Source of the DNA: an uncultured Candidatus Saccharibacteria bacterium
Lineage (GTDB): Bacteria; Patescibacteriota; Dojkabacteria; SC72; JAFGCJ01
Reading direction: 5' to 3'
NCBI GenBank assembly: GCA_964508755.1
Contig: CAZDUZ010000001.1
Location: 15,110 to 79,109 of the forward strand
Length of the DNA: 64,000 bases
In this document: positions 25,752 through 59,053 of the stretch, one piece after another
Layout of the letters: each line of letters opens with the position of its first letter
How positions within the stretch are numbered: position 1 is the first letter of the stretch
Notes under the pieces: model-generated
Databases searched by the model: none
Told to the model about the DNA's origin: nothing
What the model saw: only the letters and a program-made list of their open reading frames with translations
Position numbers and translations under genes: made by a program

Positions 25752-26090
25752 GTGAATATTGTAACTGGTATTGATATAGTGGATATTGCTGAGTTTCAAG
25801 CTCAACTCGATCGAGGTGGAGAACGCATGGTAAAGAGATGTTTTTTCGATTCAGAACGTGATAATGCTTCTATTGAGCGCCTTGCCGGGACATTTGCAGC
25901 GAAGGAAGCTGTCATCAAAGCATTATCCTTAGGCCATTCTTCGTGGAAAAAGGTTATGGTTAAACATGCGCCTGACGGAAGACCAATTATTCAGTTGTTA
26001 GATGTGCAATGCTTGATAATATCATCGGATGTATCTATCACTCATACTGATTCCGTTGCCGCAGCTCAATTTGTTGCAATTCTTTCATGA
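25752..26090 (+). CDS. acpS: Holo-[acyl-carrier-protein] synthase (4'-phosphopantetheinyl transferase, AcpS type)
   Basis: GIDIVDIAEF ... LAGTFAAKEAVIKAL conserved AcpS blocks. 112 aa. The stop overlaps the next gene's start (ATGA). Confidence 0.75.
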   Translation: MNIVTGIDIVDIAEFQAQLDRGGERMVKRCFFDSERDNASIERLAGTFAAKEAVIKALSLGHSSWKKVMVKHAPDGRPIIQLLDVQCLIISSDVSITHTDSVAAAQFVAILS

Positions 26091-28612
26091 AACGAATGAG
26101 TCCTTTCAACAATCTTTCAGAGTACATTTCTTCATGTGCTTCTTCATTCCCTGACAATACTGTCATGCAGATTCGTCGTGGTTTCACGACAGAAAAGTAC
26201 TCTTATAAAGAGCTTGACCGTTTGATGAGGCAATGTGCTTCATATTTATATAAGACTGGTCTGAGGAAAGGTGACTGTGTATTGATATGGGGTCCAAATA
26301 TGCCAGAGTGGGTAGTGGCGTTATTGGGAGTTCTATCAATTGGTGCCGTTTCGGTGCCTGTCAGTATGCATGCCACCCCTGAAACGGTTGATGAATATCT
26401 CCGACAAACCAATGCGAAATTTCTTCTTCGCTCACGATTTGTAAATGATCGTAAGCGACGTGGCGTCACCGCAATTGATCTCGAAGACGTTATAACATCC
26501 TCACGAAAGTATGAGGAGATGAAGCTGCCGAAGATTAAACCTGATGATGTAGCTGAAATAATGTATACCTCCGGGACCACGGGAGATCCTTCCGGGGTAG
26601 TGCTGAGCCACGGAAATATTCTTGAAGGACTTGAAGGTCTTCGTCTTTTGGTACCTCCTTCCTCTGAATTTCGTTTGCTTTCAATACTTCCGTTAAGTCA
26701 CGCTCTGGAACAGCTTCTTGGATTTTTCACTCTCATACGCTTTGGGGCAACGGTTTACTATGTACCCCGAATAAATCCTGTTGTGATTGTGCGCTCTCTT
26801 AACCGCTACAAAATAACTCATCTCATCGTTGTGCCTGAATTGATCAAGGTGATGTGGAATTCCATTGAACTTCAGGCTCAGCAAAAAGGAGCTCTCTTAA
26901 AGCTGCAAAAAGCATTGAAAATAGCTCCGCATCTCCCAATGTCTCTTCGTCGAGTATTGTTTAAGGATGTTCATAAAGCTTTTGGTGGAAAGCTAAAGCT
27001 TCTTGCCTGTGCAGGAGCTCCACTCGATGTATGGGTAGGGGAGAATTGGGAAAAAATAGGTGTCGTAGTGCTTGAAGGATATGGCTTAACAGAGACAAGT
27101 GCTGCTTTGACGGCGAATCAAATACATGCAAGAAAAATAGGATCCGTAGGAAAGCTTTTACCTGGAGTTGAAGTAAGATTTTCAAAGGATGGTGAGGTCC
27201 TCACTCGGGGTTTGAATGTCACGAAGGGATACTACAAAAATGCAAAGAAGACTAAAGAATCATTTACCTCAGAGGGTTTCTTTAAAACGGGAGATGTCGG
27301 ATATGTAGGTAAGGATGGATTCGTGTATTTAACCGGTAGAAAAAAATTCAAGATTGTTATACCGACAGGAGAAAAAGTATATCCTGAAGATGTTGAGCGT
27401 TCTTTAAATGATCACCCTGCAGTAAAAGAAAGTTGTGTTATAGGTATTAAAAAGGATCGTGGTGAGATTGTGCATGCGGTGCTCATCCTGAAGCGAGATA
27501 TTGATCCTGCAACAGTTATTGCTCAGGTAAATTCTCAGCTTGAGTCTCATCAAACAATTCTTGAGTGGAGCTTGTGGAAAGACGATGATTTTCCCCGTAC
27601 TCGGTCACTAAAAAAAGATAGAAACAGAGTAAAAGAGTATGTGATGGGTACTATTACTTCATCAAGCAGCGACCTACCGCAAGATAGTAAAGCCACTACC
27701 TCCCAACGTGATCCACTAAAGGATATTATCTCTGCTGTTTTTAGTGTTGACGCTCATTCTATAACTGAAAATACCTCTTTAGTGTTTGATCTTCATATGG
27801 ATTCATTACGCCGGATTGCCTTAGTTTCCCTTATTGAAGATGAATTTGGAGTGGTTGTGTCTGAACAAGATCTTGTAGAATCTACAAAAGTGGAAAATGT
27901 CCGAATCCTCATTAAGGAAGGGAAGAAATCGGTTGAAAGTAAAGCGATTCCTTCTTGGCCAACTGCTCCTTTCACCGTAATTATAAGAGATTTGATTCGG
28001 ACATTTCTCTTTTTTCCGATTTCAAGACTCACCCTTGCCCGTATAGAAATTGTGAACAAAGAAGTGGTAAAAAATATGAAAGGACCATCAATTATTGCTT
28101 TTAATCATGTCGGACATTTAGAGCCACTAATGATTATGGTCTCGCTTCGCCGTGCGATTCAGAAAAAACTGTTTACGCTTGCAGATGCAGATGGATTCTA
28201 TCTCTGGATTCGTCGTTTCTTTTTATACTTCTTTGCAGGTGCATTTCCAGTAGAGAAGCATGGTGGGCCTGTTCGTCAGACGCTTGAATTGGCTGCTGAC
28301 CTTTTGGAAGACGGGTGGAGCTTACTTATGTCACCCGAAGGAAATAGAAGTTCTGATGGAAATCTTTTAGAATTCAAACAGGGGACGGGTATGATTGCTG
28401 TTGAAACACGTGTACCTGTTTATCCTGTGAAAGTGAAAGGTTACCGCGAGGCACACGTAAGTCTAAAGAAGGGTATTTTTGACGTTTTTTTTGATTTCGC
28501 AAAGCCAGGTAAAAAAGTTACGCTTGTTTTCGGCGAGCCGATCGTTTTCGACCCCAATACTTCGCACGAACAGGCGACTGAGAAGATTCGTTCCGTGATT
28601 GAGAACTTGTAG
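26087..28612 (+). CDS. Tri-domain acyl-ACP synthetase (AMP-binding) / acyl carrier protein domain / PlsC-type lysophospholipid acyltransferase (Aas-like)
   Basis: AMP-binding motifs (MYTSGTTGDPSGV, GYGLTET, TGD...GRKK), a phosphopantetheine-attachment site LHMDSLRRIALVSL, then the acyltransferase motifs NHVGHLEP and MSPEGNRS. Confidence 0.75.
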   Translation: MKRMSPFNNLSEYISSCASSFPDNTVMQIRRGFTTEKYSYKELDRLMRQCASYLYKTGLRKGDCVLIWGPNMPEWVVALLGVLSIGAVSVPVSMHATPETVDEYLRQTNAKFLLRSRFVNDRKRRGVTAIDLEDVITSSRKYEEMKLPKIKPDDVAEIMYTSGTTGDPSGVVLSHGNILEGLEGLRLLVPPSSEFRLLSILPLSHALEQLLGFFTLIRFGATVYYVPRINPVVIVRSLNRYKITHLIVVPELIKVMWNSIELQAQQKGALLKLQKALKIAPHLPMSLRRVLFKDVHKAFGGKLKLLACAGAPLDVWVGENWEKIGVVVLEGYGLTETSAALTANQIHARKIGSVGKLLPGVEVRFSKDGEVLTRGLNVTKGYYKNAKKTKESFTSEGFFKTGDVGYVGKDGFVYLTGRKKFKIVIPTGEKVYPEDVERSLNDHPAVKESCVIGIKKDRGEIVHAVLILKRDIDPATVIAQVNSQLESHQTILEWSLWKDDDFPRTRSLKKDRNRVKEYVMGTITSSSSDLPQDSKATTSQRDPLKDIISAVFSVDAHSITENTSLVFDLHMDSLRRIALVSLIEDEFGVVVSEQDLVESTKVENVRILIKEGKKSVESKAIPSWPTAPFTVIIRDLIRTFLFFPISRLTLARIEIVNKEVVKNMKGPSIIAFNHVGHLEPLMIMVSLRRAIQKKLFTLADADGFYLWIRRFFLYFFAGAFPVEKHGGPVRQTLELAADLLEDGWSLLMSPEGNRSSDGNLLEFKQGTGMIAVETRVPVYPVKVKGYREAHVSLKKGIFDVFFDFAKPGKKVTLVFGEPIVFDPNTSHEQATEKIRSVIENL

Positions 28613-29785: not shown

Positions 29786-31474
29786 TTAGAGCTGAGTTGT
29801 GAGGAGACAGAGGGAGGAATCTTCACAGGTATATAGTATTTTCTTTCCTGCAGCATCTGGTGCAAATGAACCTTTTGAAGGCATTTCGGATAATTCGTTG
29901 CTAATCCTGGTCTCGGTATCAATGTACATAAGGGTATCAGTATTTTCATCAAAGGCTTTTGTAAAGAGAAGAACTGTTGAAGCAGGATGCCACATCAGTT
30001 GATGTACCAAAGAGCCTTCATCCTTATTTAGGATTTGGCGTGGACCTTTCGTGTGAAGTGGATCTCTGTCTTCTAATTCAAACCAGAATTCAGAGAAAGA
30101 ATTATCTTTTTCTTTAAAAAGAAATGACGTATGTAGCGGTGAAAATGAATGGAACTGTGGTTCGTCAGCAGAAAAGAATTCGGTGGTATCGGTTTGTAGC
30201 GAGTATAATGCAATATCTTTCGGAGAAAACAGGATGAGGTAGGTATTATCAGGAGTAATACGAATATCAGTTGCATCCTTCAAGATATCAGTAATTGTAT
30301 TTACCTCTTCAATTCTTTCTGTCTTACCTGCTTTCCCTGTGTCTGGTTCTTCGATGGGAAGCGTTGAATCCTCTGATGGAGCTTGGTAGGTAAGTAGTGT
30401 GGTGAGAGGACCGCCTTCTGCACTGGCACGAAGCAGTATGCTTTCACTCTGAGATCGTTTAGTGATGAAGACTGTCCCTACATCGTCTGTTGTCCAGAAG
30501 AAATCAATTAGGTCTGTCGGTATGTCTGTTATTACCGTTTGAGTAAGGGTTGAGGATTGTAATGAACGAAGCTCGTTTCCTCGGGTGAAGAGCAGGTGTT
30601 GGGAGTCGTTGCTCCAGGAAATCAGTTCACTATCAGAAAGCTGTGATAATTCCACCGGAGTTTGTGCAGGTTCGGAGGCGGAAATCAGTTGATAACTTGT
30701 TGTTCTTACGCCATTGATGCTGTCTATTCTTTCCTCAGTGAACAATAAGAGTTCGCCGTTAGGGGACAGATCAAGTTTAAAGGAATATGAACTCTTATCG
30801 GTGAGATCAAATCCAAGTTCTTCCTTCGTGAATTCTGCAATAAGTACTGGGACAGCTTGATTTTCCCAAAATCTTCGACGCAATTGATACGTCCAAATCT
30901 GAAGGGTTGATGGAACAAATGCTGTTTCTGTTCCGGGTTCAATTTGGTTTAGGGTTGAATTTGGTAATGGCTCTGTGTTTCCGTTATTGCTTATTGCCGT
31001 ATTATTCTCAGAGACAAGCACAATGAATGCAGCTTTGGTTCCTGTTTCATTGACACTCATGCTAATTACTTGACTTGATGTACCAGCTTCCGGATCTGTT
31101 GAGATAATAGGGAATAGAGGATCCTTTACGGGTTCTTTTAGAAACAATGTAATGTGATAAGGAATCAATTGTTCTGCTTGAACATTCACCGAGGTAAACC
31201 AGTCGTAATATCCCTCTTTACTGACACGAAGCGTATGAGTTCCTTGTACAAGACCATCAAAGGCTCTTGGAGTTGTTCCTTTATCTACTTCGTCGATGAA
31301 CACGGATGCTCTGCGAGGGGTTGTTTTAATTGAAACAACTCCGGTTCGCTCGATTTCCCCGTCACGGAAGTTAATACGGTATCCCTTGGAAAAAAAGAAG
31401 ATGGCCGCTGTTCCTAGTAGAAGGAGGAGAGGGACCAAAAGAGACTTAATTATTAGTTTTACTTGTTTTTTCAT
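29786..31474 (-). CDS. Secreted/anchored PEGA-domain protein with TolB-like beta-propeller region
   Basis: N-terminal signal/TM (LLVPLLLLLGTAAIFFF). PEGA-like block PRRASVFIDEVDKGTTP...HTLRVSKEGY. The remainder is beta-rich and repeat-like. Confidence 0.5.
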   Translation of the reverse strand: MKKQVKLIIKSLLVPLLLLLGTAAIFFFSKGYRINFRDGEIERTGVVSIKTTPRRASVFIDEVDKGTTPRAFDGLVQGTHTLRVSKEGYYDWFTSVNVQAEQLIPYHITLFLKEPVKDPLFPIISTDPEAGTSSQVISMSVNETGTKAAFIVLVSENNTAISNNGNTEPLPNSTLNQIEPGTETAFVPSTLQIWTYQLRRRFWENQAVPVLIAEFTKEELGFDLTDKSSYSFKLDLSPNGELLLFTEERIDSINGVRTTSYQLISASEPAQTPVELSQLSDSELISWSNDSQHLLFTRGNELRSLQSSTLTQTVITDIPTDLIDFFWTTDDVGTVFITKRSQSESILLRASAEGGPLTTLLTYQAPSEDSTLPIEEPDTGKAGKTERIEEVNTITDILKDATDIRITPDNTYLILFSPKDIALYSLQTDTTEFFSADEPQFHSFSPLHTSFLFKEKDNSFSEFWFELEDRDPLHTKGPRQILNKDEGSLVHQLMWHPASTVLLFTKAFDENTDTLMYIDTETRISNELSEMPSKGSFAPDAAGKKILYTCEDSSLCLLTTQL

Positions 31475-31618: not shown

Positions 31619-32620
31619 ATGCTGACAAAAAGAATTGGAATAGATTTAGGGACGGCTAACTCAGTTGTCTTCATCGATAAGCAGGGTGTGGTGCTTGTGG
31701 AGCCAACTGTTGTTGCTCTTAATGCCGACGATTATTCTGTTGTGGCTGTTGGAAGTGAGGCAAAAGCAATGCTTGGGAAGACACCTGAGCATGTTATTGC
31801 CTGCAGACCGCTTAGAAGCGGAGTAATCGCAAGTTACAGAGTTACTGAGGCCTTGCTCAAATATTTCATCAATAAGGTTGTTGGTTTTTCACGTCTTTTC
31901 CGTCCAGAAGTCATGATTAGCGTTCCTGCCGGAATTACCTCTGTAGAGCAGCGTGCGGTAAAGAAAGCTGCATTAGCGGCGGGAGCAGGTAAGGTATGGC
32001 TAATCCCCGAACCTCTTGCAGCAGCAATTGGTGCCGGTCTACCTATACATACCTCTGCAGGAAATATGATCGTAAACATGGGAGGTGGAACAGCTGAGGT
32101 AGCAATAATCTCATTAAACGGTATGGTGGTGTGGAATTCGGTGCGAGTTGCCGGTGATGCGCTTAATGACTCAATTATCTCATACTTAAGAAGAAAACAT
32201 GGTCTTCTTATCGGTGAGCAAACGGCTGAGGATATAAAGCTAAAAATTGGTACCGCTCTTCCGTTAGATAAGGAAGAATCAATGGAAGTACGAGGGAGAG
32301 ATAATTCGAGTGGTCTACCACGGTCCATTACCGTTACTTCAAACGAAACAGCTGAAGCCATGAAAAAACCATTAAATGGCATTATTGCTGCAGTAAAACA
32401 GGTTCTTGAGCAAACTCCTCCTGAATTATCATCAGATGTCATTGATCGGGGAATGGTCTTGAGTGGAGGGACTTCTTTGCTAAGAAATATTGATGGACTA
32501 CTTACAAAAGCAACCGGTGTTCCATCATACGTCGCCGATGATGCTTTGTTTTGTGTCGTCAGAGGTACGGGTGAAGCTCTGAAAAATCTGGACGTATTGC
32601 AACGAAGCTTGGGGACTTGA
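31619..32620 (+). CDS. mreB: MreB/Mbl-family actin-like protein (paralog 1)
   Basis: IGIDLGTANSVVF phosphate-1 motif, LIPEPLAAAIGAGL, MIVNMGGGTAEVAIISL and other MreB blocks along the full length. Confidence 0.85.
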   Translation: MLTKRIGIDLGTANSVVFIDKQGVVLVEPTVVALNADDYSVVAVGSEAKAMLGKTPEHVIACRPLRSGVIASYRVTEALLKYFINKVVGFSRLFRPEVMISVPAGITSVEQRAVKKAALAAGAGKVWLIPEPLAAAIGAGLPIHTSAGNMIVNMGGGTAEVAIISLNGMVVWNSVRVAGDALNDSIISYLRRKHGLLIGEQTAEDIKLKIGTALPLDKEESMEVRGRDNSSGLPRSITVTSNETAEAMKKPLNGIIAAVKQVLEQTPPELSSDVIDRGMVLSGGTSLLRNIDGLLTKATGVPSYVADDALFCVVRGTGEALKNLDVLQRSLGT

Positions 32621-32683: not shown

Positions 32684-33577
32684 ATGATGACTCTTATTAT
32701 AAGTGCCTGGAAAGAGCCGAAAACGATAGGTAAGGCCGTCTATGAGCTGCTATCTCAAGCCCGAGTACTAAAGGAACCCTCTGAGCTTATTCTTGTATGT
32801 CCCGACCGTGAAACGTATGAAGCGGCAGCAAGAGTTGCTTCAGGGTATCGATCAATTCCATTTATATATATAAAAGATCCGCAAAAAGGTAAGCCATTTG
32901 CCCTCAATTTAGCTTTCAAGAAAGCAAAGGGTAGTATATGGGTGCTAACTGATGGTGATGTATGGATAGATAAAGGTGCTCTGGAAAAACTTATTGAGCC
33001 ATTTACGAGAAGTGACGTGTATGGAGTTACCGGAAGACCTGTATGTCGCAATGAAAGAAATACAATATGGGGTTATTGGGGGCATTTGTTTATGGATGCT
33101 GCACATGAAAAACGTATTCGGACATTGGGGAGGGGTCGATTTTATGCTATGAGTGGTTATTTATCTGCTATTCGGACGTCTCGGATCACTATACCTTCCG
33201 GAGTGCTTGATGACGTATATCTGTCGTGCCTCCTTAATGAAAAAGGTAAAAAAATCTCGTATGCTCCCGGAGCTCGTGTTCTTGTCCGACAGCCTGAAAA
33301 TTGGAAAGACTGGATTTCTCAGAAGGTCCGTTCTGTATCCGGTTATCAGGGTTTGAAGAAAATGTTTCCTCATACAAAAGCCTTTCGAAAAGTAACCGAT
33401 GACCTCGCTTTTGCTTTATTTCCAGTGTTTTACGCAAGGAATCCTCGTGAGTTACTCTGGAGTTTACTTCAATATCCAGTCCGTCTTTGGGTATGGACGC
33501 TTGTCGCTTTACAACGGTTCCGAGGTAAAACCGCTGCAGATTTATGGATTGGAAAACGAATTGAAAGCACTAAGTAG
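32684..33577 (+). CDS. Family-2-like glycosyltransferase
   Basis: Rossmann-like N-terminal region with LTDGDVWID (DxD) and a GT-A style layout. Low specificity. Confidence 0.45.
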   Translation: MMTLIISAWKEPKTIGKAVYELLSQARVLKEPSELILVCPDRETYEAAARVASGYRSIPFIYIKDPQKGKPFALNLAFKKAKGSIWVLTDGDVWIDKGALEKLIEPFTRSDVYGVTGRPVCRNERNTIWGYWGHLFMDAAHEKRIRTLGRGRFYAMSGYLSAIRTSRITIPSGVLDDVYLSCLLNEKGKKISYAPGARVLVRQPENWKDWISQKVRSVSGYQGLKKMFPHTKAFRKVTDDLAFALFPVFYARNPRELLWSLLQYPVRLWVWTLVALQRFRGKTAADLWIGKRIESTK

Positions 33578-33593
33578 AGCGTAGTATAATTTA

Positions 33594-34838
33594 GTGAGAA
33601 ATGTTGCTGAGTATTTCTATCGAAAGCGTTTTTTTAATATTAGAAAGTTGAAGTTTGTTTATTACTTATTACCTTTGCACCCCATGCTTTTTAAAAAAAA
33701 GAAAGAAATGACACATACAGAAGTCGAAAAAATTCTTGCTAAAGTAGCTACACCAATGAGTCTTTATTTAGTACCAGAGAATGAAAAGGCTGAACGGGAT
33801 CGTTTTTTTAAAGATAGTTCGTATAACCCTCAATTTGTTTACAGAAAGTCGAATAAAAATAAAGGGATTTTTGAGCAGATAGATGGATTGCAGGAGATTT
33901 CCGATGTTGATCCTGCTATTTCGAGTTATATTATTCATACCATTGAAAGTAAGCGCGAATCGGTGGCGTTGTTTGACGCAATAGGCAAGGATGATGAATT
34001 TGAGAAACTTTCACGATCGAGATTTGGAGTTCCTTCTCCTTTTTTGTTTCGAAAGGCGTGTCGGATTCTTCGAGGTAATATGAAGGATTTTGCAATTGAG
34101 CCGCGAAACGAACAACTGGCAAATATAATACTTACCTTTGATCAACTTGAACCAATATTCAACAAAGTCTTTCAGTTGCTTCGTCTTGATGGGTGGACTT
34201 TGGAGAAATCTAAGGCAATTGCTTCAAAGGGATTTAGAACGGTGATGAAAACGAGAAGAATAATGGTTGATCCAGAAATTGAGGTGAGTGCTGAGAAACT
34301 AAAGAAAACCATTATTCATGAAGTCGCAACGCACGCTCTTCGAGGGAACAACGGATATGCCACTGGATATGAAGTATTCGGCAAACCAAATCTCCGTGAG
34401 TATCTCGATGACGAGGAAGGTATGGCCATGTTTAATGAAGAGATATTCGGAGTTATGAGGGATATCGATGTAAAAAAACGTGCCGCGTTAGTGTATGCAG
34501 CCTATCTAGCACAATTCGTGTCATTTCGGAGATTATTTGAAGCCTTGTCAGCGGTATATCCAAAAAATACAGCATATGATGTGTGCTTACGTGTTAAACG
34601 CGGAATATCCGATACCTCACGGCCGGGCGGATACTACCGAGATGCATGCTATCTTCGAGGTTATTACAAAGTTGTGAAGAAACTCACTAATGATCCGGTA
34701 ACGTATCAGAATATGTATGCGGGAAAAATTCCGTTATCCCACCTATCGTTGGTTGAGGAGGGTGTAATTCCAAAACCGAGCACCTATCCAACAGAAACAC
34801 AGGTTAAGGAAATCTTTCATATCATCGAAAGTGCTTAA
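33594..34838 (+). CDS. DUF1704 / QEGLA-motif putative metallo-carboxypeptidase (flavohemoglobin expression-modulating family)
   Basis: HEVATHALRG (HExxH) and EEGMAMFNEE (QEGLA-equivalent) blocks. The N-terminal part of the track ORF is probably not translated; a start near MTHTEVEK at ~33709 is more likely. Confidence 0.55.
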   Translation: MRNVAEYFYRKRFFNIRKLKFVYYLLPLHPMLFKKKKEMTHTEVEKILAKVATPMSLYLVPENEKAERDRFFKDSSYNPQFVYRKSNKNKGIFEQIDGLQEISDVDPAISSYIIHTIESKRESVALFDAIGKDDEFEKLSRSRFGVPSPFLFRKACRILRGNMKDFAIEPRNEQLANIILTFDQLEPIFNKVFQLLRLDGWTLEKSKAIASKGFRTVMKTRRIMVDPEIEVSAEKLKKTIIHEVATHALRGNNGYATGYEVFGKPNLREYLDDEEGMAMFNEEIFGVMRDIDVKKRAALVYAAYLAQFVSFRRLFEALSAVYPKNTAYDVCLRVKRGISDTSRPGGYYRDACYLRGYYKVVKKLTNDPVTYQNMYAGKIPLSHLSLVEEGVIPKPSTYPTETQVKEIFHIIESA

Positions 34839-34876
34839 GCGCTTTGAGTAATAACTAATGGTTAACGCATTAATAA

Positions 34877-35830
34877 TTACTTTGAGAGTAATTGCTCAAT
34901 GATATCTGATGCGATAGTGGTTGGAGCTCCTTCGACTTTTGTCTCAAACGCTTTAAATCCAGGATTCATATTAACTTCAAGGATATAGGGCATTTCATTG
35001 CTATAGATGATATCGACAGCGCAATAGTCTGCTTCAAGAAGTTGTGCGGTTTTTATAGCAAGCTCTTTTAACTTTGGCTCAGGGTTGTCGTACAAAGAGT
35101 ATTCTCCGTGACTTACCGTCAAAAAGTTGTCGGTCGCATCTCTCTTCCATCCACTATAGTATTGACCACCGATCATAATCGCACGATAGTCTGTGCCGGT
35201 ATCTAGGAACTTCTGGATCATATATCGTGAGGGTTTAGTAATAAACTCATCTTCAATTTCATCATAGGTCTTACAAGCGGTTTCAAGGTCTTGTGCATTA
35301 TTAACGAGATATACGTTTTTCTTAAGTTTTTCTTTACCATCAATAAGTTGCACTTTATATTCACCTTCTCTGTGTTTGTAAATCAGTGGGAAACCGAGCC
35401 GTGCGAGGATTTCTTTCTTTTCCCAATATTTACCATCGATACAATACGCACTCTCAAGATAGGGGAGACCTGCGTCTGCAAAGTACTGCATTTGCAACAC
35501 TTTGTCATAATGAGCCCACTTCTTCATAAAGGCACTGTTTTGAAGAATGATTCCGTGCTTCTCACAAAAAGCGACTATTGCAAGCTTGAGCATGTATTCA
35601 TATGGTGTCCGGTGTCCTCGTACAATAACATGGGTGTAGGAGTTGAGAGATATGCCATTTACTTCGATAAGCATCTCTTGGTCGGATACTCTCAGAATAA
35701 TATCTGAGTAATGAGCGAGATCGCATGCGATAGATCGTTTATCAAGTTCTTCTTTCAGCCGTTGGACTGCATACTGAGGTTCATTCTTGTTGCCGATTCT
35801 TTTGGCAATATCAATGATCAAGAATTTCAT
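34877..35830 (-). CDS. RimK-type ATP-grasp ligase (alpha-L-glutamate ligase-like)
   Basis: ATP-grasp layout with a C-terminal E..N.NPG-like block YILEVNMNPGFKAF. Its stop overlaps the upstream ATP-grasp gene. Confidence 0.65.
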   Translation of the reverse strand: MKFLIIDIAKRIGNKNEPQYAVQRLKEELDKRSIACDLAHYSDIILRVSDQEMLIEVNGISLNSYTHVIVRGHRTPYEYMLKLAIVAFCEKHGIILQNSAFMKKWAHYDKVLQMQYFADAGLPYLESAYCIDGKYWEKKEILARLGFPLIYKHREGEYKVQLIDGKEKLKKNVYLVNNAQDLETACKTYDEIEDEFITKPSRYMIQKFLDTGTDYRAIMIGGQYYSGWKRDATDNFLTVSHGEYSLYDNPEPKLKELAIKTAQLLEADYCAVDIIYSNEMPYILEVNMNPGFKAFETKVEGAPTTIASDIIEQLLSK

Positions 35831-37512
35831 GAAGGAATCGTAATTAATTTATGTATGAGGTTCTCATTTTGAAGTTGACTAATGGTGTTGGCTATTTTTT
35901 CTTTGTTTGGGTCGTTAGTAATGAAAAGGTCGATTGTGTTAAAGCCAAATCCATTTTCAGATACTTCTTCAATGGTATCGTAGTGAAGAACGATTGTGTT
36001 TAGCGAAGCATTCTTTTTAAGGCACAAAACACCTTCATGAGTCGAAAGTCCTGTTTGGATTACTTCACCTTCAATAGAGTAGGTGCCTTTGTGTAGACTG
36101 CCGATTCGGCCATGTTCAGGGAGCGCTTGCGCTATTGTTTCTCGAATTGTATCTTCATTAATCGATCCAAGAATTACTATCCTATGAGTGCGAGGAGTAT
36201 TTCCCATAAGTGAGGTAATCATTTTTTCATGAACCTCTGGATACTGTTTACCCACAACTGGAAATGTGTTGAGGTACATTTCAGGCATGGTGTTCATTTC
36301 AATGATGCCACCGTTTTCGAGGGTAAGTGGTTTCGTTATATCGACGCATAAAATATCAAGTCCGAGAACGTGTGCATGTATAGAAGAAGCGATAGTCTCA
36401 GCAAGATATCTGATCTGAGGGCACACTTTTTCTGTTACATCTTCTGTTATGCCACCCTGGCTCATACTCGCAACATCGCGGACTCTTACATATGCTCCTT
36501 CTGCAGGAACTTGTTCAAGAGAAAGATCTTGCTTTTCCAACACTTTTTTCAAGTCCTCGTCTATGACAATTGGCTTTAATGTATGGATTGGAAGTCGGAT
36601 ATCGCGGGCAGGATTTGTGTTTTCTTTTTGTATTAACTGCTCTATGGTGCTTTTCCCGTCTCCAATTACTCGTGCTTGCTGTCTGTGTGTTGCAATTTCG
36701 AATTTTCCATCAATAAGAAGAATCCTGTAATCGTTACCTTTGAGTACTCGTTGTACAAGTATTTCCTTTTGCCATGCTGATTTGAGTTCTGGGAATTTCA
36801 TCTCGTGCTCGTAATAATAGTGTATCCGGTCCCATGCGTCCTCGAGCTCTTTAATAGTTTTCATTCCGATTTGAACTCCGTGACCTCCGGTTAAGCCGAC
36901 TGGTTTCATTACCAATGGAAAGCCTAGTTTGTCTGCTATAGCGGGAAGATCTTCCCTCGAAGCAACCGGTGACCAAGCTGCAAGCGGAAGTCCCATCTCC
37001 TCTAAAAATTGGTTGGTAAGAATTTTAGTTTTCTGGGTTTTTTGCGCAAAAGCGGCATCCCCGGAGGATGAAGCTGAGTGAATGAGTTGTTGTTCAGCTC
37101 CAATTCCTATACTGTAATCAAGATTCCATCCTTTTTTTGTCAGAGTACCTTCGTTTACATAGAGCTGAAGTGTTTCGTACCCGAGGTTGTGTGCTGCATC
37201 GAGTAGGGGAATGGTTGTCATTGATCCAAGGATCAGGCGGGCATATTCCATCATCGCGTTTTCAGCCTGCTCATAGGTTTCATTTCCTAAGGCACATAGT
37301 TCTAAATGCTTAGCAAATTCACTGTTTTTCCAGAGATGGGGAATGTTCGTCTGTATCGTTACAACGGTTCCGTTTATAGAATAGGATTTCATAAATACTG
37401 GGTGAAGATCTTTGAATCTATCAATGAGCTTCGTTTCGATTTTTTCTGCCTCGATAGTAACAGAGGTAGAGGTACTCGAGAGGTTACATCCTTGCTGTAC
37501 GGTTATTTTCAT
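35827..37512 (-). CDS. ATP-grasp ligase with cyanophycin-synthetase-N-domain-like core plus an extra N-terminal domain (561 aa)
   Basis: FPLVMKPVGLTGGHGVQIG ... YRILLIDGKFEIATHRQQARVIGDGKSTIEQLI ... IIEMNTMPE parallels the CphA N-terminal ATP-grasp. No Mur-ligase domain. Confidence 0.65.
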   Translation of the reverse strand: MKITVQQGCNLSSTSTSVTIEAEKIETKLIDRFKDLHPVFMKSYSINGTVVTIQTNIPHLWKNSEFAKHLELCALGNETYEQAENAMMEYARLILGSMTTIPLLDAAHNLGYETLQLYVNEGTLTKKGWNLDYSIGIGAEQQLIHSASSSGDAAFAQKTQKTKILTNQFLEEMGLPLAAWSPVASREDLPAIADKLGFPLVMKPVGLTGGHGVQIGMKTIKELEDAWDRIHYYYEHEMKFPELKSAWQKEILVQRVLKGNDYRILLIDGKFEIATHRQQARVIGDGKSTIEQLIQKENTNPARDIRLPIHTLKPIVIDEDLKKVLEKQDLSLEQVPAEGAYVRVRDVASMSQGGITEDVTEKVCPQIRYLAETIASSIHAHVLGLDILCVDITKPLTLENGGIIEMNTMPEMYLNTFPVVGKQYPEVHEKMITSLMGNTPRTHRIVILGSINEDTIRETIAQALPEHGRIGSLHKGTYSIEGEVIQTGLSTHEGVLCLKKNASLNTIVLHYDTIEEVSENGFGFNTIDLFITNDPNKEKIANTISQLQNENLIHKLITIPS

Positions 37513-37515
37513 TTT

Positions 37516-38559
37516 TTAGTTCTTATAATTATCTAAAATATATTGTTGAATTGTAGTACAAATATCAACGACATTCCCCTCGTCAGGCATATAGTGTATG
37601 CGGACACCGGGATTGTGGTTTACTTCATTAACGGCATATCTTTGAGCTGGCGCAGTAATATCTGGTGTAATAAGATCAATTCCTGCGAGAGTGAGCCCGG
37701 TCGCTTTGGTGATATCAATTGCAAGCTTCGTATATTCTGAGTGTATCTCTGATGAACATTCACGAACCGTGCCTCCTGAGGTCATGTTTGCATTTAGCCG
37801 TACCGTGACACGTTCGTTTTCTGTAGGAATCGAATCTGGAGTATAGCCTTTCAGATGGAGTGCTTTTACTGCTTCCTCATCATCTATCTTGATCTGGGGG
37901 CGGTTGACTTGATGATAGCGCTCATTTAAGTTCGATACCAAGTCTCGTATGCTACTTGTGCCATTTCCCACGATATATGGCGCCATTCTTTCAGCTACAG
38001 CTATGACTTTATCCTTAAGAACAAGGATTCTGAAATGTCTACCCTGTATAAATTCTTCTACCAGAACCCGGGAGTTGTTATCGGTCAATGCAGCATCATA
38101 GGCATAGGTAAATGCACGATCGATCTCTTCATCGGTGTGGGGTAGAATGGAAACACCACCGCCACCAAATCCCCTCACGGGTTTTATGACAATGTTTTTC
38201 AGTGTGTGCGCCTTCATGAAATCTTGGATTTCGTCACAAGACTGAACAACCGCTTGGAGAGGGACAGGAAAGCCTTCATCTCTAAGAAATCTGTTACACA
38301 TGTTCTTGTAACTGACCAGTGACATAGCAACGGAATCATTGATGGGGGTAAGTGCTTTATGAATTCGCCAGATCTTTCCGTTTTTTGAGAATTCAGCAAA
38401 AAGGCCTGGAATAAGCATTCGGTAAGAAATTCCTAATTTTGCAGCAGAAACGATATACGCTGCTAATTGAGTGTTGTGGGAATAGGCGAGTGCCTCCTTG
38501 TAGGTAAGCTCTTTCGCCGAGAATGTTTGCGTATTTTCTGGTTTATGAATACTTTTCAC
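37516..38559 (-). CDS. ATP-grasp ligase, cyanophycin-synthetase-N-like (347 aa)
   Basis: GFGGGGVSILP glycine loop, FRILVLKDKVIAVAERMAPYIVGNGTSSIRDLV, VNEVNHNPG block. Confidence 0.65.
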   Translation of the reverse strand: MKSIHKPENTQTFSAKELTYKEALAYSHNTQLAAYIVSAAKLGISYRMLIPGLFAEFSKNGKIWRIHKALTPINDSVAMSLVSYKNMCNRFLRDEGFPVPLQAVVQSCDEIQDFMKAHTLKNIVIKPVRGFGGGGVSILPHTDEEIDRAFTYAYDAALTDNNSRVLVEEFIQGRHFRILVLKDKVIAVAERMAPYIVGNGTSSIRDLVSNLNERYHQVNRPQIKIDDEEAVKALHLKGYTPDSIPTENERVTVRLNANMTSGGTVRECSSEIHSEYTKLAIDITKATGLTLAGIDLITPDITAPAQRYAVNEVNHNPGVRIHYMPDEGNVVDICTTIQQYILDNYKN

Positions 38560-38586
38560 CTTTGCCGTTTATACAAAAAATTTACA

Positions 38587-40104
38587 TTAATGAAGGGAGA
38601 AAGTTCTGCTTGCATCAATGAGAAAGGGTTTTAAATCTCTTCTACCCAGTATCGCGGGGTAGGGAAGATCTTTTCTTCGGCTGACAATCATTTCTGAGTC
38701 TATAGTAAGACCTGAAATTGTGATGGTCGCTGTAATCATCGGACGAATTGAGATGGTATCTTCTTCAATGATGATGACGTTAGTGATAAGAGGGTGTGTA
38801 AGAATTCTCGCTTTGTTTTCCTCAAGGAAACTTTCTGCTTCCTCCCGGGTAGAAAATTCTTTTGGAACTTCGAGATCTCTGAAGTATTCTAAGGCGCTTC
38901 GATATCCTAACTCGCTTGCGAGTGAGGTGGTGATACGTGAACGTATAATGCCGGTATCAACTTGTACTTTCGCTGCGTAATTGAGGGCTCTCTTTCGTTT
39001 TGCTGGATCTGAAGTCTTCTTATTCGACTTTTCTATGGGGATTTTGTGAAATTGAACTTTTTGGACGAGTCCTATGATTTCTCTACCGCTTATTGCTTCA
39101 ATTTCGTCTTCGACTTCTCCTCCAAAAAGGTTTTGAGCTATACGAATACCATGATCAGCATCTTTGATCTTTAGTCCCTTTACTCGTTCCATACGACTCT
39201 TCATACCGCTCATGTTAGCAATTTGAACAGCAAGACCTGCTCGAGCATTGAGTTCTAGTACAATTGGTCCTTTTTCTCTGTCCAATGCGATATCCGCTCC
39301 TAGATATCCAAGTCCGGTAACTTCTTGGCACTTGATAGACATTCGAAGAATATCTTTCCACTGAGGTATTTGAATACCACGCAGAGGTAGGTTGCTATCG
39401 TCAAGTGTTGTTTCAATAATATCGTAAATGTCGGAAATAATTGATGCTCCTCTGCGGTGGATAGCAACGGTAGTAATCCCAGAAGCTATATCAATACCTA
39501 CACCGATACCGCCCGCATGGAGATTTGCTTTTCCTCCAGACTGGTAGGTCGGAAGCCTGAGTTCTGCCATGATCGGAACTTTATTGAACACGATGACACG
39601 GATATCCGGAATACCCTTATAAGAGTAAGGTTTCAAAAGTGGGTGATTAACTATGCGCTCTTCTATGATTGCCGTATCTTTTCTATTACCCATTGAAAAT
39701 TGACCGTCGAGTATTTGTCCTATGTGGCTTTTAATTTCTGTAACACCCATTACACTGCCGTCAGGTTGAATCCATTCAAGACTATTCTTTCGCTTACCGT
39801 AAAAAATGAGGATACCGCTTCCTCCTGTGCCAATATTGGGCTTAAGAGCAAAGCTTTTGGGTAGTTCTTCCCATTTCAAGGTGTTCAGTTGTTTACGGTT
39901 GCGGATAATTTTGTAAATTTCTGCAGTAGGAATTCCGGTTCTAGAAAGTATTTTTTTGCAAAGAATTTTGTCGTCAGCAATTCTTTTGGCACGTGGAGAA
40001 TTGTACGGTCGTACATACACCGCATTTCGCTGATTTATTCCAAGAACTTCTTTACTTCTTTGGAGTGTTGTCAGGAGATTCCCCATGGCGGATAACCTGC
40101 GCAA
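38587..40104 (-). CDS. alpha-L-glutamate-ligase-like ATP-grasp fused to a C-terminal DUF785 retropepsin-like (putative ATP-dependent zinc protease) domain
   Basis: N-terminus LGINQRNAVYVRPYNSPRAKRIADDKILCKKIL ... ALKPNIGTGGSGILI matches the RimK-related E-ligase family. The C-terminal ~140 aa (IRPMITATITISGLTIDSEMIVSRRKDLPYPAILGRRDL) resemble DUF785. Confidence 0.65.
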   Translation of the reverse strand: MRRLSAMGNLLTTLQRSKEVLGINQRNAVYVRPYNSPRAKRIADDKILCKKILSRTGIPTAEIYKIIRNRKQLNTLKWEELPKSFALKPNIGTGGSGILIFYGKRKNSLEWIQPDGSVMGVTEIKSHIGQILDGQFSMGNRKDTAIIEERIVNHPLLKPYSYKGIPDIRVIVFNKVPIMAELRLPTYQSGGKANLHAGGIGVGIDIASGITTVAIHRRGASIISDIYDIIETTLDDSNLPLRGIQIPQWKDILRMSIKCQEVTGLGYLGADIALDREKGPIVLELNARAGLAVQIANMSGMKSRMERVKGLKIKDADHGIRIAQNLFGGEVEDEIEAISGREIIGLVQKVQFHKIPIEKSNKKTSDPAKRKRALNYAAKVQVDTGIIRSRITTSLASELGYRSALEYFRDLEVPKEFSTREEAESFLEENKARILTHPLITNVIIIEEDTISIRPMITATITISGLTIDSEMIVSRRKDLPYPAILGRRDLKPFLIDASRTFSLH

Positions 40105-40732
40105 ATCTTAAAAATTCTGTCCATCTAAGGCCTGAATACTGACCTACAAGGACATTAACAAGGATCAAGAACGGAATGATCCAAAGGTTATTGATAAAGA
40201 AGTTGTGGGTTACTTCCCATCGCATGAGGCTCCAGCCGAGACAGGAAATTAATATTGTCTCTCCGGTAAGTCGAGCAGCTGTCATAAGATCTTTTTTGAT
40301 ATATGTCGCGACAAATCGATCAGCGACAGAAATGATCATTGCAAGGGGTAGAAAAGATATGGCAGTAAAATCCAGATACTTATTATCGACAGGAAGAAAA
40401 GATGTACCAATGATAAAGGCAAAGACTGCAATCGATATTGCGGTGTATACAATTGAAAGCCTTGAAAGATAGTGCAGTTGAAATTTACGCAGAATGTTTC
40501 TGATAATCCAGGATACGATTACTACCAGTAATGCTATAGAAATTCCCTGAATAAAACCCATGTAGTAAAAGGCAAAAGCGAGTATCATCGACGCGTAAAG
40601 TCCGAAAGTCTTGATTCCAGTAACATACCTGGAAAAGGCAGTAAGTGTGACCAATAGAGGGATAAAGGTAAGGACGAGGAGAATGTCTTCGGTGACACCT
40701 CTCTCCATGAGCCAAGATGTTAGATCAGGCAT
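40052..40732 (-). CDS. 7-TM membrane protein (7TM module of the type found with RimK-like ligase systems; no transglutaminase domain)
   Basis: Seven hydrophobic helices across 226 aa. First gene of the minus-strand ATP-grasp operon; overlaps the next gene by ~50 nt. Confidence 0.5.
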   Translation of the reverse strand: MPDLTSWLMERGVTEDILLVLTFIPLLVTLTAFSRYVTGIKTFGLYASMILAFAFYYMGFIQGISIALLVVIVSWIIRNILRKFQLHYLSRLSIVYTAISIAVFAFIIGTSFLPVDNKYLDFTAISFLPLAMIISVADRFVATYIKKDLMTAARLTGETILISCLGWSLMRWEVTHNFFINNLWIIPFLILVNVLVGQYSGLRWTEFLRFAQVIRHGESPDNTPKK

Positions 40733-40963
40733 GTCCCGAGGTGTTCAATTTATCTCGAGTTCATAATAAAAAACGACGAGCAATTATACAATATCTCGTA
40801 GGTATTAATCCAGTGTTTTCGCTGTTATCACTTCATTAATTCGTAATCCTGGCATGGAGTTTTTAAAAGGTTATGTGTAGGGGAGGGGAGAATAAGGCCT
40901 CTGCAACAACTAATGTTTAGCCTATTACATAGATATTTCCCAAAAGCCAGTTAAATAACCTAC

Positions 40964-41002
40964 TAAAAAAGCCACCGACACAATACATTGCATCGCGTGG
41001 CT
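40964..41002 (-). terminator. Rho-independent terminator downstream of rplL
   Basis: On the minus strand: AGCCACG...CGTGGCT hairpin followed by TTTTTT, immediately after the rplL stop. Confidence 0.55.
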
Positions 41003-41022
41003 CTTTGTTTGCTTAAGAACAA

Positions 41023-47327: not shown

Positions 47328-48377
47328 ATGTTCAACTCATTTTGGAATGCTGTCACATTAGATGTTGGTATCGATTTAGGTACTGCGAATACCCTCGTTT
47401 CTGTTGTGGGTAAGGGGATTATGATAAATGAGCCATCGGTTGTCGCTGTTCGTAAGAAAACCAAAGAAGTTTTGGCTGTCGGGAATGAAGCTCGTCAGAT
47501 GATTGGACGCACACCGGCAAGTGTTATTGCCATCCGTCCATTGAAGAATGGAGTAATCACTGATTTCGATACCACTCAGGCAATGATTCGCTATTTCATC
47601 GAGCGGGTGCATGATTTATCTGCGAAATTCCTAAAAATTCCACGTCCAAGAGTTGCTATCGGTGTACCTTCTTCCGTGACTGAAGTCGAAAGGCAGGCTG
47701 TGGTAGATGCTGCTCGAGGAGCTGGTGCTCGAAAAGTCTATCTGGTAGAGGAAACAATTGCCGGAGCGGTTGGAGTAGGGCTTCCGATCGAAGATGCAAG
47801 CGGAAGTATGATTGTAGATATTGGTGGAGGAACGACTGATATTGCGGTGATTTCGCTTGGAGGGATTGTTGTTGACAAAACGATTAGTGTTGCAGGAGAT
47901 GAGATGGATCTTGATATTCTGAATTACGTTAAGCATAAGTATAATCTTCTCGTAGGAGAGAGGAGCGCGGAAGAAGTAAAAATTGCTATTGGTTCCGCCT
48001 CTGCACCTAAGGAAGAAAAATCGGTAGTTCTTCAAGGTCGGGATCTAGTGACCGGTCTTCCTAAATCCATTGAGATTTCCTCGGTTGAGGCAAGAGAGGC
48101 ACTTATGAATACGCTCAATCAAATTACCGAGGCAATTCGCGACGCGGTGGAGGAAACTCCTCCCGAGTTATTGGCAGATTTGTCGAGTTCCGGGGTAATC
48201 GTTGCTGGGGGTGGTGCGCTTCTCTATGGTATTGATAAATTCTTGAAAGACCGATTAAAGCTTCCTGTCATTATTGCTGACGATCCAATGACCGCGGTCG
48301 CGAGAGGTACTGCGAAAATGCTTGAAAGACCAGACTTATTAAGTAAGTCAGAGGCAAGTTGGGAGGACATGCTTTAG
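47328..48377 (+). CDS. mreB: MreB rod-shape protein (paralog 2, adjacent to mreCD)
   Basis: VGIDLGTANTLVSV, AVIRPLKNGVI, VVDIGGGTTDIAVISLGGIV, LSSSGVIVAGGGALLYGID blocks. Confidence 0.9.
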   Translation: MFNSFWNAVTLDVGIDLGTANTLVSVVGKGIMINEPSVVAVRKKTKEVLAVGNEARQMIGRTPASVIAIRPLKNGVITDFDTTQAMIRYFIERVHDLSAKFLKIPRPRVAIGVPSSVTEVERQAVVDAARGAGARKVYLVEETIAGAVGVGLPIEDASGSMIVDIGGGTTDIAVISLGGIVVDKTISVAGDEMDLDILNYVKHKYNLLVGERSAEEVKIAIGSASAPKEEKSVVLQGRDLVTGLPKSIEISSVEAREALMNTLNQITEAIRDAVEETPPELLADLSSSGVIVAGGGALLYGIDKFLKDRLKLPVIIADDPMTAVARGTAKMLERPDLLSKSEASWEDML

Positions 48378-48533
48378 AATCGAAAGGGTTGGACATTGTT
48401 ATTTGTAGTACCGGAACTCAAAACATTTGATAATTAGATTGATTTCAAGTATAAGTCAAAGTAAGGATACGATGCGTGCAGAATTAGATATACTGCCGTT
48501 CTACCTATCTTTACTGTAACTCGTACACGGCAC

Positions 48534-49822: not shown

Positions 49823-49832
49823 CGTTCAGAAT

Positions 49833-58804: not shown

Positions 58805-59053
58805 AAACGTTTAATATTACTTATTAACCACGTTCTCACTCAGAAAACAAATGATACTTACTGAGCGGTTGCATCTTATCGTGAGAAGCCTTTCAGTGCA
58901 AGATGTACTGCTGAGTGTTCTTGCAACAGATGTACATAAATGGTAGTATCGCCACGATATTATTTTACTACTCACGCCCCGGCGGCCTTCTTGTTTTCGA
59001 CGGGATCGTATCCTTCGAAGATATTCGCGGGCGGGTGTGCAAAGGAGGATCTT

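Follow-up and report, generated by a model that had tools for sequence, protein, structure and literature searches.

A conserved Dojkabacteria locus with four ATP-grasp ligases and two peptidases, a candidate system for building and trimming an acidic peptide at the membrane

Why should a bacterium with a genome of about 1 Mb keep four different ATP-grasp ligases, two peptidases and a seven-transmembrane (7TM) protein in one compact locus? The question is raised by region 33594–40732 of a 64,000-nucleotide (nt) stretch of DNA from an uncultured Candidatus Saccharibacteria bacterium that GTDB places in the Dojkabacteria (GenBank assembly GCA_964508755.1, contig CAZDUZ010000001.1, positions 15,110–79,109 of the forward strand), hereafter the window. 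An earlier note had read the region as a peptide-making operon of a reduced-genome organism; the host indeed belongs to the Patescibacteria (Dojkabacteria/WS6), and of the note's account the observation was partly confirmed and the interpretation partly supported. The core of the locus is of a known kind, that of the rlo operon, the RimK-RimB pair and the QEGLA neighborhoods. With moderate confidence, we favor the reading that the locus encodes an expanded, cytoplasm-facing ligase-plus-peptidase system of the Rlo/RimK type, fixed across the Dojkabacteria, which builds and trims a Glu/Asp-rich non-ribosomal peptide at the membrane.

A check of the open reading frames (ORFs) of the window returned six in this region, each where the earlier note had placed it, and their domain identities held:

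40052–40732, minus strand: 7TM RloB-like protein, 226 amino acids, first gene of the operon
38587–40086, minus strand: fusion protein (RloC-like ATP-grasp plus retropepsin), 499 amino acids, ATG at 40086
39127–40086, minus strand: RloC-like ATP-grasp domain, residues 1 to ~320 of the fusion
38983–39126, minus strand: fusion linker, residues ~321–368
38587–38982, minus strand: retropepsin-like (DUF785/RloA/RimB-type) domain, residues 369–499 of the fusion
37516–38559, minus strand: Cph1, G-domain-only CphA-type ligase, 347 amino acids
35827–37512, minus strand: Cph2, CphA2-like three-domain ligase, 561 amino acids
37117–37512, minus strand: Cph2 N domain, about residues 1–132
36193–37116, minus strand: Cph2 G (ATP-grasp) domain, about residues 133–440
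35827–36192, minus strand: Cph2 vestigial M (Mur-ligase-like) subdomain, about residues 441–561, without P-loop
34877–35830, minus strand: RimK-like ATP-grasp ligase, 317 amino acids, last gene of the operon
33594–34838, plus strand: MATCAP/DUF1704 metallocarboxypeptidase, 414 amino acids as called, GTG start
40733–41022, minus strand: 290-nt intergenic spacer rplL/7TM with a terminator-like hairpin and an extended −10-like TGTATAAT

The five minus-strand genes run in the order 7TM, RloC-retropepsin fusion, Cph1, Cph2 and RimK-like. Overlapping stops and starts, which the earlier note had described for the operon, were present at two of its four junctions: the fusion ATG at 40086 overlaps the 7TM stop by 35 nt and the RimK-like start overlaps the Cph2 stop by 4 nt (ATGA), whereas gaps of 27 nt (fusion/Cph1) and 3 nt (Cph1/Cph2) lie at the other two. 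The MATCAP gene had been called divergent and just upstream. It lies instead tail to tail with the RimK-like gene across a spacer at 34839–34876, and since the two stops are 38 nt apart it is convergent with the operon and downstream of it. The spacer between rplL and the 7TM gene probably holds the operon promoter; direct reading found the extended −10-like element at 40783–40790, for which the scan gave no −35, and the terminator scan placed the hairpin at 40976–40995, 3′ of rplL. Matches of both scans were at or below shuffle expectation and serve as weak pointers only. Rfam returned tRNAs only, elsewhere in the window, with no match in or near the locus, and the PADLOC defense models matched none of the six proteins at an expectation value (E) ≤ 1e-3. 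Exact-sequence look-ups of the window's own proteins returned no record, and context was taken from homologs.

With each GTDB species represented by one genome, a scan found 109 species that encoded a Cph2 relative, and 80 loci were taken and annotated with the window proteins as queries. The named Cph2 relatives belonged to Dojkabacteria/WS6, as did the taxonomically named loci among the 80, the others bearing generic Saccharibacteria, Microgenomates, Patescibacteria or "bacterium" labels. The order was the same in essentially all loci of sufficient length, with L10, L12, 7TM, fusion, Cph1, Cph2 and RimK-like genes in one direction, the MATCAP gene and an MreB paralog facing them, and then a PEGA-domain protein gene in the first direction. 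Protein identity across these loci was 35–65%, the median operon gaps were −14, 8, 9 and 2 nt, and that of the convergent junction was 0 nt. Retention of this order in essentially every long enough locus of 80 species representatives puts the arrangement far beyond chance, so that the lack of a conserved operon in related genomes, which the earlier note had named as telling against it, was not what we found; operon structure is kept class-wide. An exhaustive HMMER search of 1.84 billion representatives grouped the full-length Cph2-type proteins into ~10 clusters at 50% identity, the remaining matches beginning only at the G domain, and the nearest sister proteins (515–540 amino acids) came from a divergent lineage. 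The divergent lineage seen in loci L087 and L088, and partly in L086, carries the same six components at 31–49% identity in a changed order: 7TM, fusion, Cph1, an inserted gene, RimK, the MATCAP gene on the opposite strand and then a Cph2-like gene, with no mreB adjoining. Recurrence of the set despite rearrangement is the strongest evidence that the six proteins work together, the convergent MATCAP included. Smaller versions occur on other small-genome metagenomic contigs (L083–L085) as co-directional operons, 7TM-RloC(+retropepsin-like, "VNTG")-MATCAP and 7TM-RloC-MATCAP-RimK, in which MATCAP stands on the same strand as its partners. These minimal 7TM-RloC-MATCAP operons of other lineages bear out the triad neighborhood on which the earlier note had built, and its view of the present locus as an expanded triad, in which TIGR02291-type ATP-grasp, 7TM_transglut and QEGLA/DUF1704 proteins are joined by extra ligases to a total of four, two of them of the CphA G-domain type, also stands.

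The 7TM protein matched PF14402 (7TM_transglut; 62 bits against a cut-off of 25, E = 6e-17) and the RloB model NF052267 (42 bits against a cut-off of 900). The latter alignment is confined to model positions 311–507, which indicates that the transglutaminase domain is absent; the protein appears to be a minimal RloB-like form made of the 7TM half only, short of the transglutaminase-7TM combination of RloB. Hydropathy and the positive-inside rule predict an N-out/C-in topology, and in 63 orthologs conserved basic residues fall on the predicted cytoplasmic loops.

Profile matches of both halves of the fusion protein agree with the earlier description of an E-ligase-like ATP-grasp domain joined to DUF785. 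The RloC domain matched PF14397 (220 bits against a cut-off of 31.4) and TIGR02291 (E = 3e-82; 276 bits, under the equivalog cut-off of 314), scores that mark it as a member of the family and not a strict TIGR02291 equivalog, and its closest structural neighbors were ArgX, LysX and RimK, enzymes that extend the C-termini of proteins. The profile of the retropepsin domain, which carries a helical insertion of ~45 amino acids, matched the P. aeruginosa aspartic peptidases 9g59 and 9g58 and the DUF785 structure 2pma (E = 1e-5 to 2e-6); PF05618 gave no match to the window protein, and many orthologs carry precomputed PF05618 matches. The catalytic D377 (DTG; region 38947–38958) is Asp in 160 of 177 orthologs and Asn in 16 of them (P0013, P0016 and P0021 among others), the homolog in L083 (6700–8004) reads "VNTG" and that in L087 "VDTN", and the arginines of RP and GR are kept as R or K in >90% of orthologs. 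Set beside RloA, the domain has the retropepsin fold and the DTG motif and lacks the signal peptide. Absence of a signal peptide or transmembrane segment from the fusion predicts a cytoplasmic retropepsin domain; because it is attached to a ligase, cleavage is expected inside the cell, where RimB also works on RimK products, and not in the periplasm as for RloA. Relatives of the fusion, all of 480–520 amino acids and 49–81% identical, come from Dojkabacteria/WS6 (Patescibacteria). The linker is Lys/Arg-rich (KSNKKTSDPAKRKRAL) and predicted to be disordered, with a predicted local distance difference test score (pLDDT) below 50, and linkers of orthologs are richer still (e.g., KKKKRRKG); the segment could serve for autoprocessing or for binding to polyanions or membranes.

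Both CphA-type ligases fall outside the curated cyanophycin synthetase models, since their scores are about a quarter of the cut-offs. Cph1 matched TIGR02068 over model positions 165–471 (E = 1e-63; 215 bits against 850) and the CphA1 structure 7lgm (E = 1.7e-41), and its K, R and E-x-N motifs are conserved in 75 orthologs. Cph2 reached 213 bits against 850 with TIGR02068 and 224 bits against 877 with NF010623; its closest solved relatives by sequence were two CphA2 structures, 7ta5 (E = 2e-42) and 8fxh, and its identity to CphA2 is 20–24%. Foldseek comparison of the AlphaFold2 model of Cph2 (pLDDT 90.9) retrieved 7ta5 (CphA2 of G. citriformis) on top over the full length (E = 8e-44, TM-scores 0.76/0.74), with CphA1 structures behind. 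This whole-chain superposition indicates that the "extra N-domain" of the earlier note is the CphA N domain and that the last ~120 residues are a vestigial M subdomain; in the profile alignment, which enters the CphA1 M domain, the P-loop TGTNGKTT stands opposite ILGSINEDT. Model and alignment thus give Cph2 the N-G-truncated-M architecture of CphA2, with an M domain predicted to be inactive through loss of the P-loop, so the description of the locus as lacking a Mur-ligase domain is right for an active one and wrong for the truncated remnant in Cph2. In CphA1 the N domain holds the growing polymer; its peptidase motif is Cx19HxxEH (PMC9262961). This motif is absent from the Cph2 N domain, as it is from CphA2, and the idea that the domain is a cryptic CphA1-like peptidase was rejected on this ground. 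Recent duplication of Cph1 and Cph2 was rejected as well, their identity being just 25%; since the RimK-like and RloC ligases are not BLAST-similar either, the locus encodes four distinct ligases and no recent duplicates.

By its profile matches, the last ligase appears to be a divergent, distant relative of RimK (PF08443, E = 1.5e-14, 54.5 bits against a cut-off of 21; TIGR00768, 79 bits, under the cut-off of 143; RimK structure 5zct, E = 9e-8), and its matches include the MptN and CofF families. K152, D214, R216, D273 and E285 are invariant in 76 orthologs, and the ATP-grasp K / D-x-R / E-x-N(S) residues are kept in all four ligases (75–177 orthologs). Profiles of Ddl, GshB and biotin carboxylase gave marginal matches only (16–33 bits against cut-offs of 243–740), far weaker than those of RloC, CphA and RimK; the possibility that these are ordinary housekeeping ligases, which the earlier note had raised against itself, therefore did not hold.

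The convergent gene encodes a MATCAP-like protein that matched PF08014 (80 bits against a cut-off of 27, E = 1.8e-22), TIGR02421 (E = 2.7e-26; 93 bits, under the cut-off of 339) and human MATCAP (7z5g, E = 8e-16, through HE(V/I)xTH, EEG(M/L)A and KRGxxDTSxPG). Its metal motif is HExxxH (HEVATH) with EEGMA, in place of the HExxH/QEGLA named previously, and all 63 orthologs have HExxTH and EEG. These features point to a PF08014 family member with a gluzincin-like HExxxH/EEG site, outside the TIGR02421 equivalog and without a literal QEGLA. Orthologs have 376–390 amino acids, nothing in them corresponds to the first ~27 residues of the long ORF, and a promoter-like TTGAAA-18-TATAAT lies at 33561–33590; the start is therefore probably M31 or M39 (33684 or 33708), and the ORF as called and as deposited (P0241) is probably about 30–38 codons too long. 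No signal peptide or transmembrane segment was found in any ligase or in the MATCAP-like protein, and all soluble parts of the system are predicted to be cytoplasmic. Of the profile searches that the earlier note had proposed, those with TIGR02291, TIGR02421 and PF14402 gave matches, with the two TIGR models below cut-off, and PF05618 missed the window protein.

What could such a set of enzymes do? Characterized relatives of the ligases extend a terminal carboxylate with an amino acid via an acyl-phosphate, as in RimK (poly-alpha-Glu on S6), LysX/ArgX (Glu on LysW), the CphA G domain (Asp or beta-Asp-Arg at the C-terminus of the polymer), GshAB and N-acetylglutaminylglutamine synthetase. On the hydrolytic side, RloA and RimB cut stretches of at least eight Glu (PMC12239564), and MATCAP/TMCP enzymes remove C-terminal Tyr/Glu and shorten polyglutamate chains (PMC10499314); with both hydrolase families acting on acidic peptides, an acidic product is likely by analogy. 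The rlo operon of P. aeruginosa encodes the retropepsin RloA, the inactive-transglutaminase-7TM protein RloB and the ATP-grasp protein RloC and affects hypo-osmotic tolerance, antibiotic tolerance and cell shape (Lormand et al., mBio 2025, PMC12239564). A triple RloA protease mutant, which dies under hypo-osmotic conditions, is rescued when rloB or rloC is lost; the ligase and the 7TM protein therefore act before the protease in a common pathway (PMC12239564). The statement that the triad is functionally uncharacterized is accordingly outdated, rlo having been characterized genetically and structurally in 2025 (PMC12239564) and MATCAP relatives being known carboxypeptidases/deglutamylases (PMC10499314).

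On this background we infer the chemistry of each step, the acidic product, the part of the 7TM protein and the physiological role as follows. Each of the four ligases would turn a terminal carboxylate into an acyl-phosphate and couple an amino acid to it, and together they would build a Glu/Asp-rich hetero-peptide, either free or primed on an acceptor; a hetero-peptide is favored over a homopolymer because the four ligases are mutually dissimilar and each has kept its catalytic residues. Cph2 would contribute a polymer-holding N domain and, with its vestigial M subdomain, a dimerization scaffold, and would probably pair with the G-only Cph1. The fused retropepsin would act as an endopeptidase on acidic stretches, limiting or recycling the chain, the MATCAP-like enzyme would trim C-terminal residues, and the 7TM protein would anchor the enzymes at the membrane and/or hand the product to the outside. 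If rlo genetics in P. aeruginosa is a guide, the system may serve envelope, osmotic or cell-shape homeostasis.

The alternatives turn in part on one neighboring gene:

31619–32620, plus strand: mreB paralog, PF06723-type, transcribed toward MATCAP, cluster membership uncertain

In most Dojkabacteria the MATCAP gene starts a median of 18 nt after this co-directional paralog; in the clade of the window a glycosyltransferase gene (32684–33577, plus strand) is inserted between the two, and in the rearranged lineage L087 the adjacency is lost. The canonical mreB-mreC-mreD-PBP2 set lies elsewhere (47328–51788, plus strand). The C-terminus of the paralog differs by clade, ending ...SLGT in the window and ...FNRDFRR in most others. 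Glycosyltransferases also occur at differing cluster junctions, GT2 in the window, WecG/TagA-type in L001 (16435–17919) and GT4 in L002 (14207–16439) and L011, which may hint at a link to a surface glycopolymer or be coincidence. Divergent from the mreB paralog is the gene of a membrane-anchored PEGA-domain protein of 562 amino acids (29786–31474, minus strand), which keeps its position across the Dojkabacteria at just 21–40% identity.

Might the locus make cyanophycin? Nitrogen storage by a split synthetase of cyanophycin or a cyanophycin-like polymer, in which Cph2 polymerizes beta-Asp-Arg-like dipeptides from another ligase of the cluster and the peptidases mobilize the store, would fit the full-length structural match of Cph2 to CphA2 and CphA1, the cyanophycin synthetase models that are the top NCBIfam matches of Cph1 and Cph2, several database records that label Cph orthologs "cyanophycin synthetase", and the ability of the CphA2 G domain alone to polymerize preformed dipeptide (PMC10273328). 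In StCphA2, however, D212 salt-bridges the arginine of the terminal dipeptide, and mutation of the equivalent D197 of GcCphA2 to Ala abolishes activity (PMC10273328); D212 and E215 of SuCphA1 (Synechocystis) align with Cph2 position 158, gaplessly between the invariant anchors D152 and K163, and this position is variable in 79 orthologs (K30, E17, T9, N8, Q5, D4). In Cph1 the counterpart of E215 (position 80) is D/E in no ortholog and Thr in 64 of 75, and where CphA continues with x-D-K, Cph1 has a K-R-K stretch. Neither a cyanophycinase nor an isoaspartyl dipeptidase was seen in ~80 loci, no locus had an active Arg-adding M domain, the operon is of the rlo type with hydrolases from acidic-peptide families, and CphA2 has been described as a cyanobacterial enzyme (PMC10206079). 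Because the Arg-binding acidic residue is not conserved, an active M domain and a cyanophycinase are missing and the scores of 213–224 bits lie far under the cut-offs of 850–877, the product is probably not cyanophycin, and Cph1 and Cph2 are probably CphA-like in architecture and mechanism without being cyanophycin synthetases. The poly-Asp-Arg product considered in the earlier note is thus disfavored, and we regard nitrogen storage by such a synthetase as very unlikely. The four ligases might instead form an assembly line in which each makes one bond of a short, defined peptide or peptide-like small molecule (osmolyte, cofactor tail or envelope precursor), with the peptidases in turnover. This would account for four mutually dissimilar and individually conserved ligases; the next-best relatives of Cph1 and Cph2 after CphA are the di-/tripeptide makers GshAB (E = 1e-35 to 1e-49) and N-acetylglutaminylglutamine synthetase (E = 2e-28 to 4e-43), and the RimK-family matches MptN and CofF glutamylate cofactors. 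Literature also ties rlo/QEGLA clusters to osmotic conditions (PMC12239564, PMC10308900), a QEGLA gene, the adjacent "GshB" and RimK being induced 27–52-fold in Photobacterium at low salinity, among the most induced genes (PMC10308900). Such a product sits poorly with the need of characterized RloA for eight or more consecutive Glu (PMC12239564), with the CphA-type N domain of Cph2, a polymer holder in CphA1, and with a 7TM partner and two peptidases, which are unusual for small-molecule pathways, and it seems to us quite unlikely.

The structural closeness of the RloC domain to ArgX, LysX and RimK raises a third possibility, a writer and eraser of a protein C-terminal tail like RimK-S6 or TTL/TTLL-MATCAP, for which the MreB paralog, a ribosomal protein or the 7TM protein would be candidate targets. 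All MATCAP relatives characterized so far act on protein tails (PMC10499314), the MATCAP gene closely follows an mreB paralog distinct from the mreBCD-PBP2 locus in most Dojkabacteria, Pseudomonas rlo mutants have cell-shape defects (PMC12239564), and the operon always follows rplJ-rplL. The C-terminus of the MreB paralog is, however, neither acidic nor conserved, L087 has lost the adjacency, the simple triads have no mreB, a terminator-like hairpin separates rplL from the operon, and CphA-type G and N domains are known only from free-polymer synthesis; moreover, synteny is generally conserved in this class, so that adjacency to rplJL and mreB may be historical. Tail modification by the locus is in our view unlikely. 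A broader proposal, which we consider speculative and doubtful, is that an all-ATP-grasp "split synthetase" makes a new biopolymer or tail. Cph2 as scaffold enzyme, its G-only partner Cph1 and the RloC- and RimK-type ligases would attach different residues one after another, and the resulting defined acidic hetero-peptide would be delivered to the membrane or envelope, or placed onto a cytoskeletal or envelope protein such as the MreB paralog, and edited by the retropepsin and MATCAP. If true, it would be a new relative of cyanophycin and a prokaryotic counterpart to the eukaryotic ligase/MATCAP "tail code", from which the latter might even have evolved.

Several points weigh against the favored reading, the building and trimming of a Glu/Asp-rich peptide at the membrane. 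Replacement of the catalytic Asp by Asn in 16 of 177 orthologs and in L083 indicates that hydrolysis by the retropepsin is dispensable in some lineages, where the domain may be a pseudo-protease; it may in part be a binding or dimerization module. The Mg-ligand N287 of the RimK-like protein is S in 65 of 76 orthologs (E-x-S, QEISxHPG), the canonical E-x-N occurring only in the clade of the window (EVN; LEVNMNPG at 34970–34993). The acidic product is argued from characterized relatives at 20–30% identity, and ligase substrate specificity cannot be read from sequence. The isoelectric point (pI) of the RloC domain is 9.85 and that of MATCAP 9.3, with Cph1, Cph2 and the RimK-like protein variable, and pI as a proxy for an anionic substrate was set aside as too weak in the Lys-rich proteomes of candidate phyla radiation (CPR) bacteria. 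No product, acceptor or carrier came to light, and in a comparison of C-termini among the conserved neighbors an acidic conserved tail was absent from the MreB paralog, L7/L12, the PEGA-domain protein, the 7TM protein, the ligases and MATCAP, and the only acidic-tailed protein in the window is an unrelated large protein (121–2967). The general synteny of the class counts here too, since the rplJL and mreB-paralog adjacency may be non-functional.

Other features of the window were recorded in passing. The large protein at 121–2967 (plus strand, 948 amino acids) has an adjacent paralog of 1120 amino acids at 3082–6444 (plus strand); both have a purple-acid-phosphatase-N/fn3-like N-terminal domain and share a C-terminal ...IASGSG(V/T)W(E/T)PE(E), perhaps a signal for sorting or anchoring. 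An 841-amino-acid fusion of AMP-binding, phosphopantetheine carrier and acyltransferase domains (26087–28612, plus strand) has an Aas-like architecture of lipid re-acylation. Ribosomal protein S2 (58940–60421, plus strand; 493 amino acids) has an N-terminal extension of ~150 amino acids and a Lys-rich C-terminal tail. A type-IV-pilin-like protein (GFTLVELLVV, by eye; 8152–8691, minus strand), ComEC (15677–17227, plus strand) and DprA (51903–53048, plus strand) are also encoded, a DNA-uptake set typical of CPR bacteria.

We found no description in the searchable literature of the class-wide four-ligase version, of a non-cyanobacterial enzyme with CphA2 architecture in an rlo-type operon together with a G-only paralog, of a ligase-retropepsin fusion or a minimal RloB, or of genes of bacterial MATCAP homologs that are consistently linked to those of ATP-grasp ligases; the literature search returned no relevant paper on ATP-grasp enzymes in Dojkabacteria or on cyanophycin in Patescibacteria, and none that joins ATP-grasp, 7TM, transglutaminase and QEGLA proteins. 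Dojkabacteria genomes measure ~1 Mb, yet this ~7-kb cluster is present in every sampled lineage, which argues for an important function. By linking cyanophycin-type, RimK-type and MATCAP-type enzymology, the cluster joins three lines that had been unconnected, namely the rlo operon, the CphA2-type polymerases thought to be cyanobacterial, and MATCAP/TMCP, known from the tubulin code only. Because the soluble parts are all predicted to be cytoplasmic and the membrane partner is minimal, reconstitution in E. coli or in vitro may be easier here, and a reconstituted Dojkabacteria version could reveal what the elusive Rlo product is. Should the product indeed be a new poly-amino acid or tail modification, it would be a new class of non-ribosomal peptide chemistry, and a prokaryotic precedent for tail editing by ligase and carboxypeptidase.

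How, then, does the locus relate to the systems already known? Closest in composition is the rlo operon, with which it shares a PF14397/TIGR02291-type ATP-grasp protein, a PF14402 7TM protein and a DTG-bearing DUF785 retropepsin, the 7TM and ATP-grasp genes being adjacent in both. Here the retropepsin is fused to the ligase and predicted to be cytoplasmic, whereas Pseudomonas exports its enzyme by means of a signal peptide; the 7TM protein is without the transglutaminase-like domain that RloB has in the periplasm; the gene set is larger by three ligases and a MATCAP-type carboxypeptidase; the scores lie below the NCBIfam cut-offs; and the system belongs to a monoderm-type CPR bacterium, in contrast to RloB, reportedly 96% proteobacterial (PMC12239564). 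With RimK-RimB, the ligase that poly-alpha-glutamylates S6 and its retropepsin antagonist, which binds or regulates it, the locus has in common a cytoplasmic ATP-grasp ligase with a cytoplasmic retropepsin and a RimK-family ligase. Here, however, the retropepsin is joined to the RloC-type ligase and not to the RimK-like one, which is itself very divergent (E = 9e-8; E-x-S in most orthologs), no evidence ties the cluster to S6, and membrane and CphA-like parts are added. The proteobacterial QEGLA/TIGR02291/7TM neighborhoods contain the same triad of families. Iyer et al. reportedly predicted in 2009, by comparative genomics, that the QEGLA/TIGR02291/7TM-transglutaminase neighborhood is a peptide-synthesis system; the present locus differs from such neighborhoods in its additional two CphA-type and one RimK-type ligases, in the peptidase fused to a ligase and in the QEGLA-type gene on the opposite strand. 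Cph2 resembles CphA2 (7ta5, 8fxh) in its N domain without an HxxEH site, its ATP-grasp G domain and its truncated M domain, predicted to be inactive, and differs from it in the low identity (20–24%), the unconserved Arg-binding Asp, the separate G-only paralog as partner and its setting, a non-cyanobacterial rlo-type operon with no cyanophycinase nearby. The writer/eraser logic of TTL/TTLL and MATCAP/TMCP1-2 finally recurs in the genetic coupling of a PF08014 carboxypeptidase to ATP-grasp amino acid ligases, in a prokaryote without tubulin, with ligases of the RloC, CphA-G and RimK families in place of TTL and with a peptidase that is ~25–30% identical to MATCAP in the catalytic core only.

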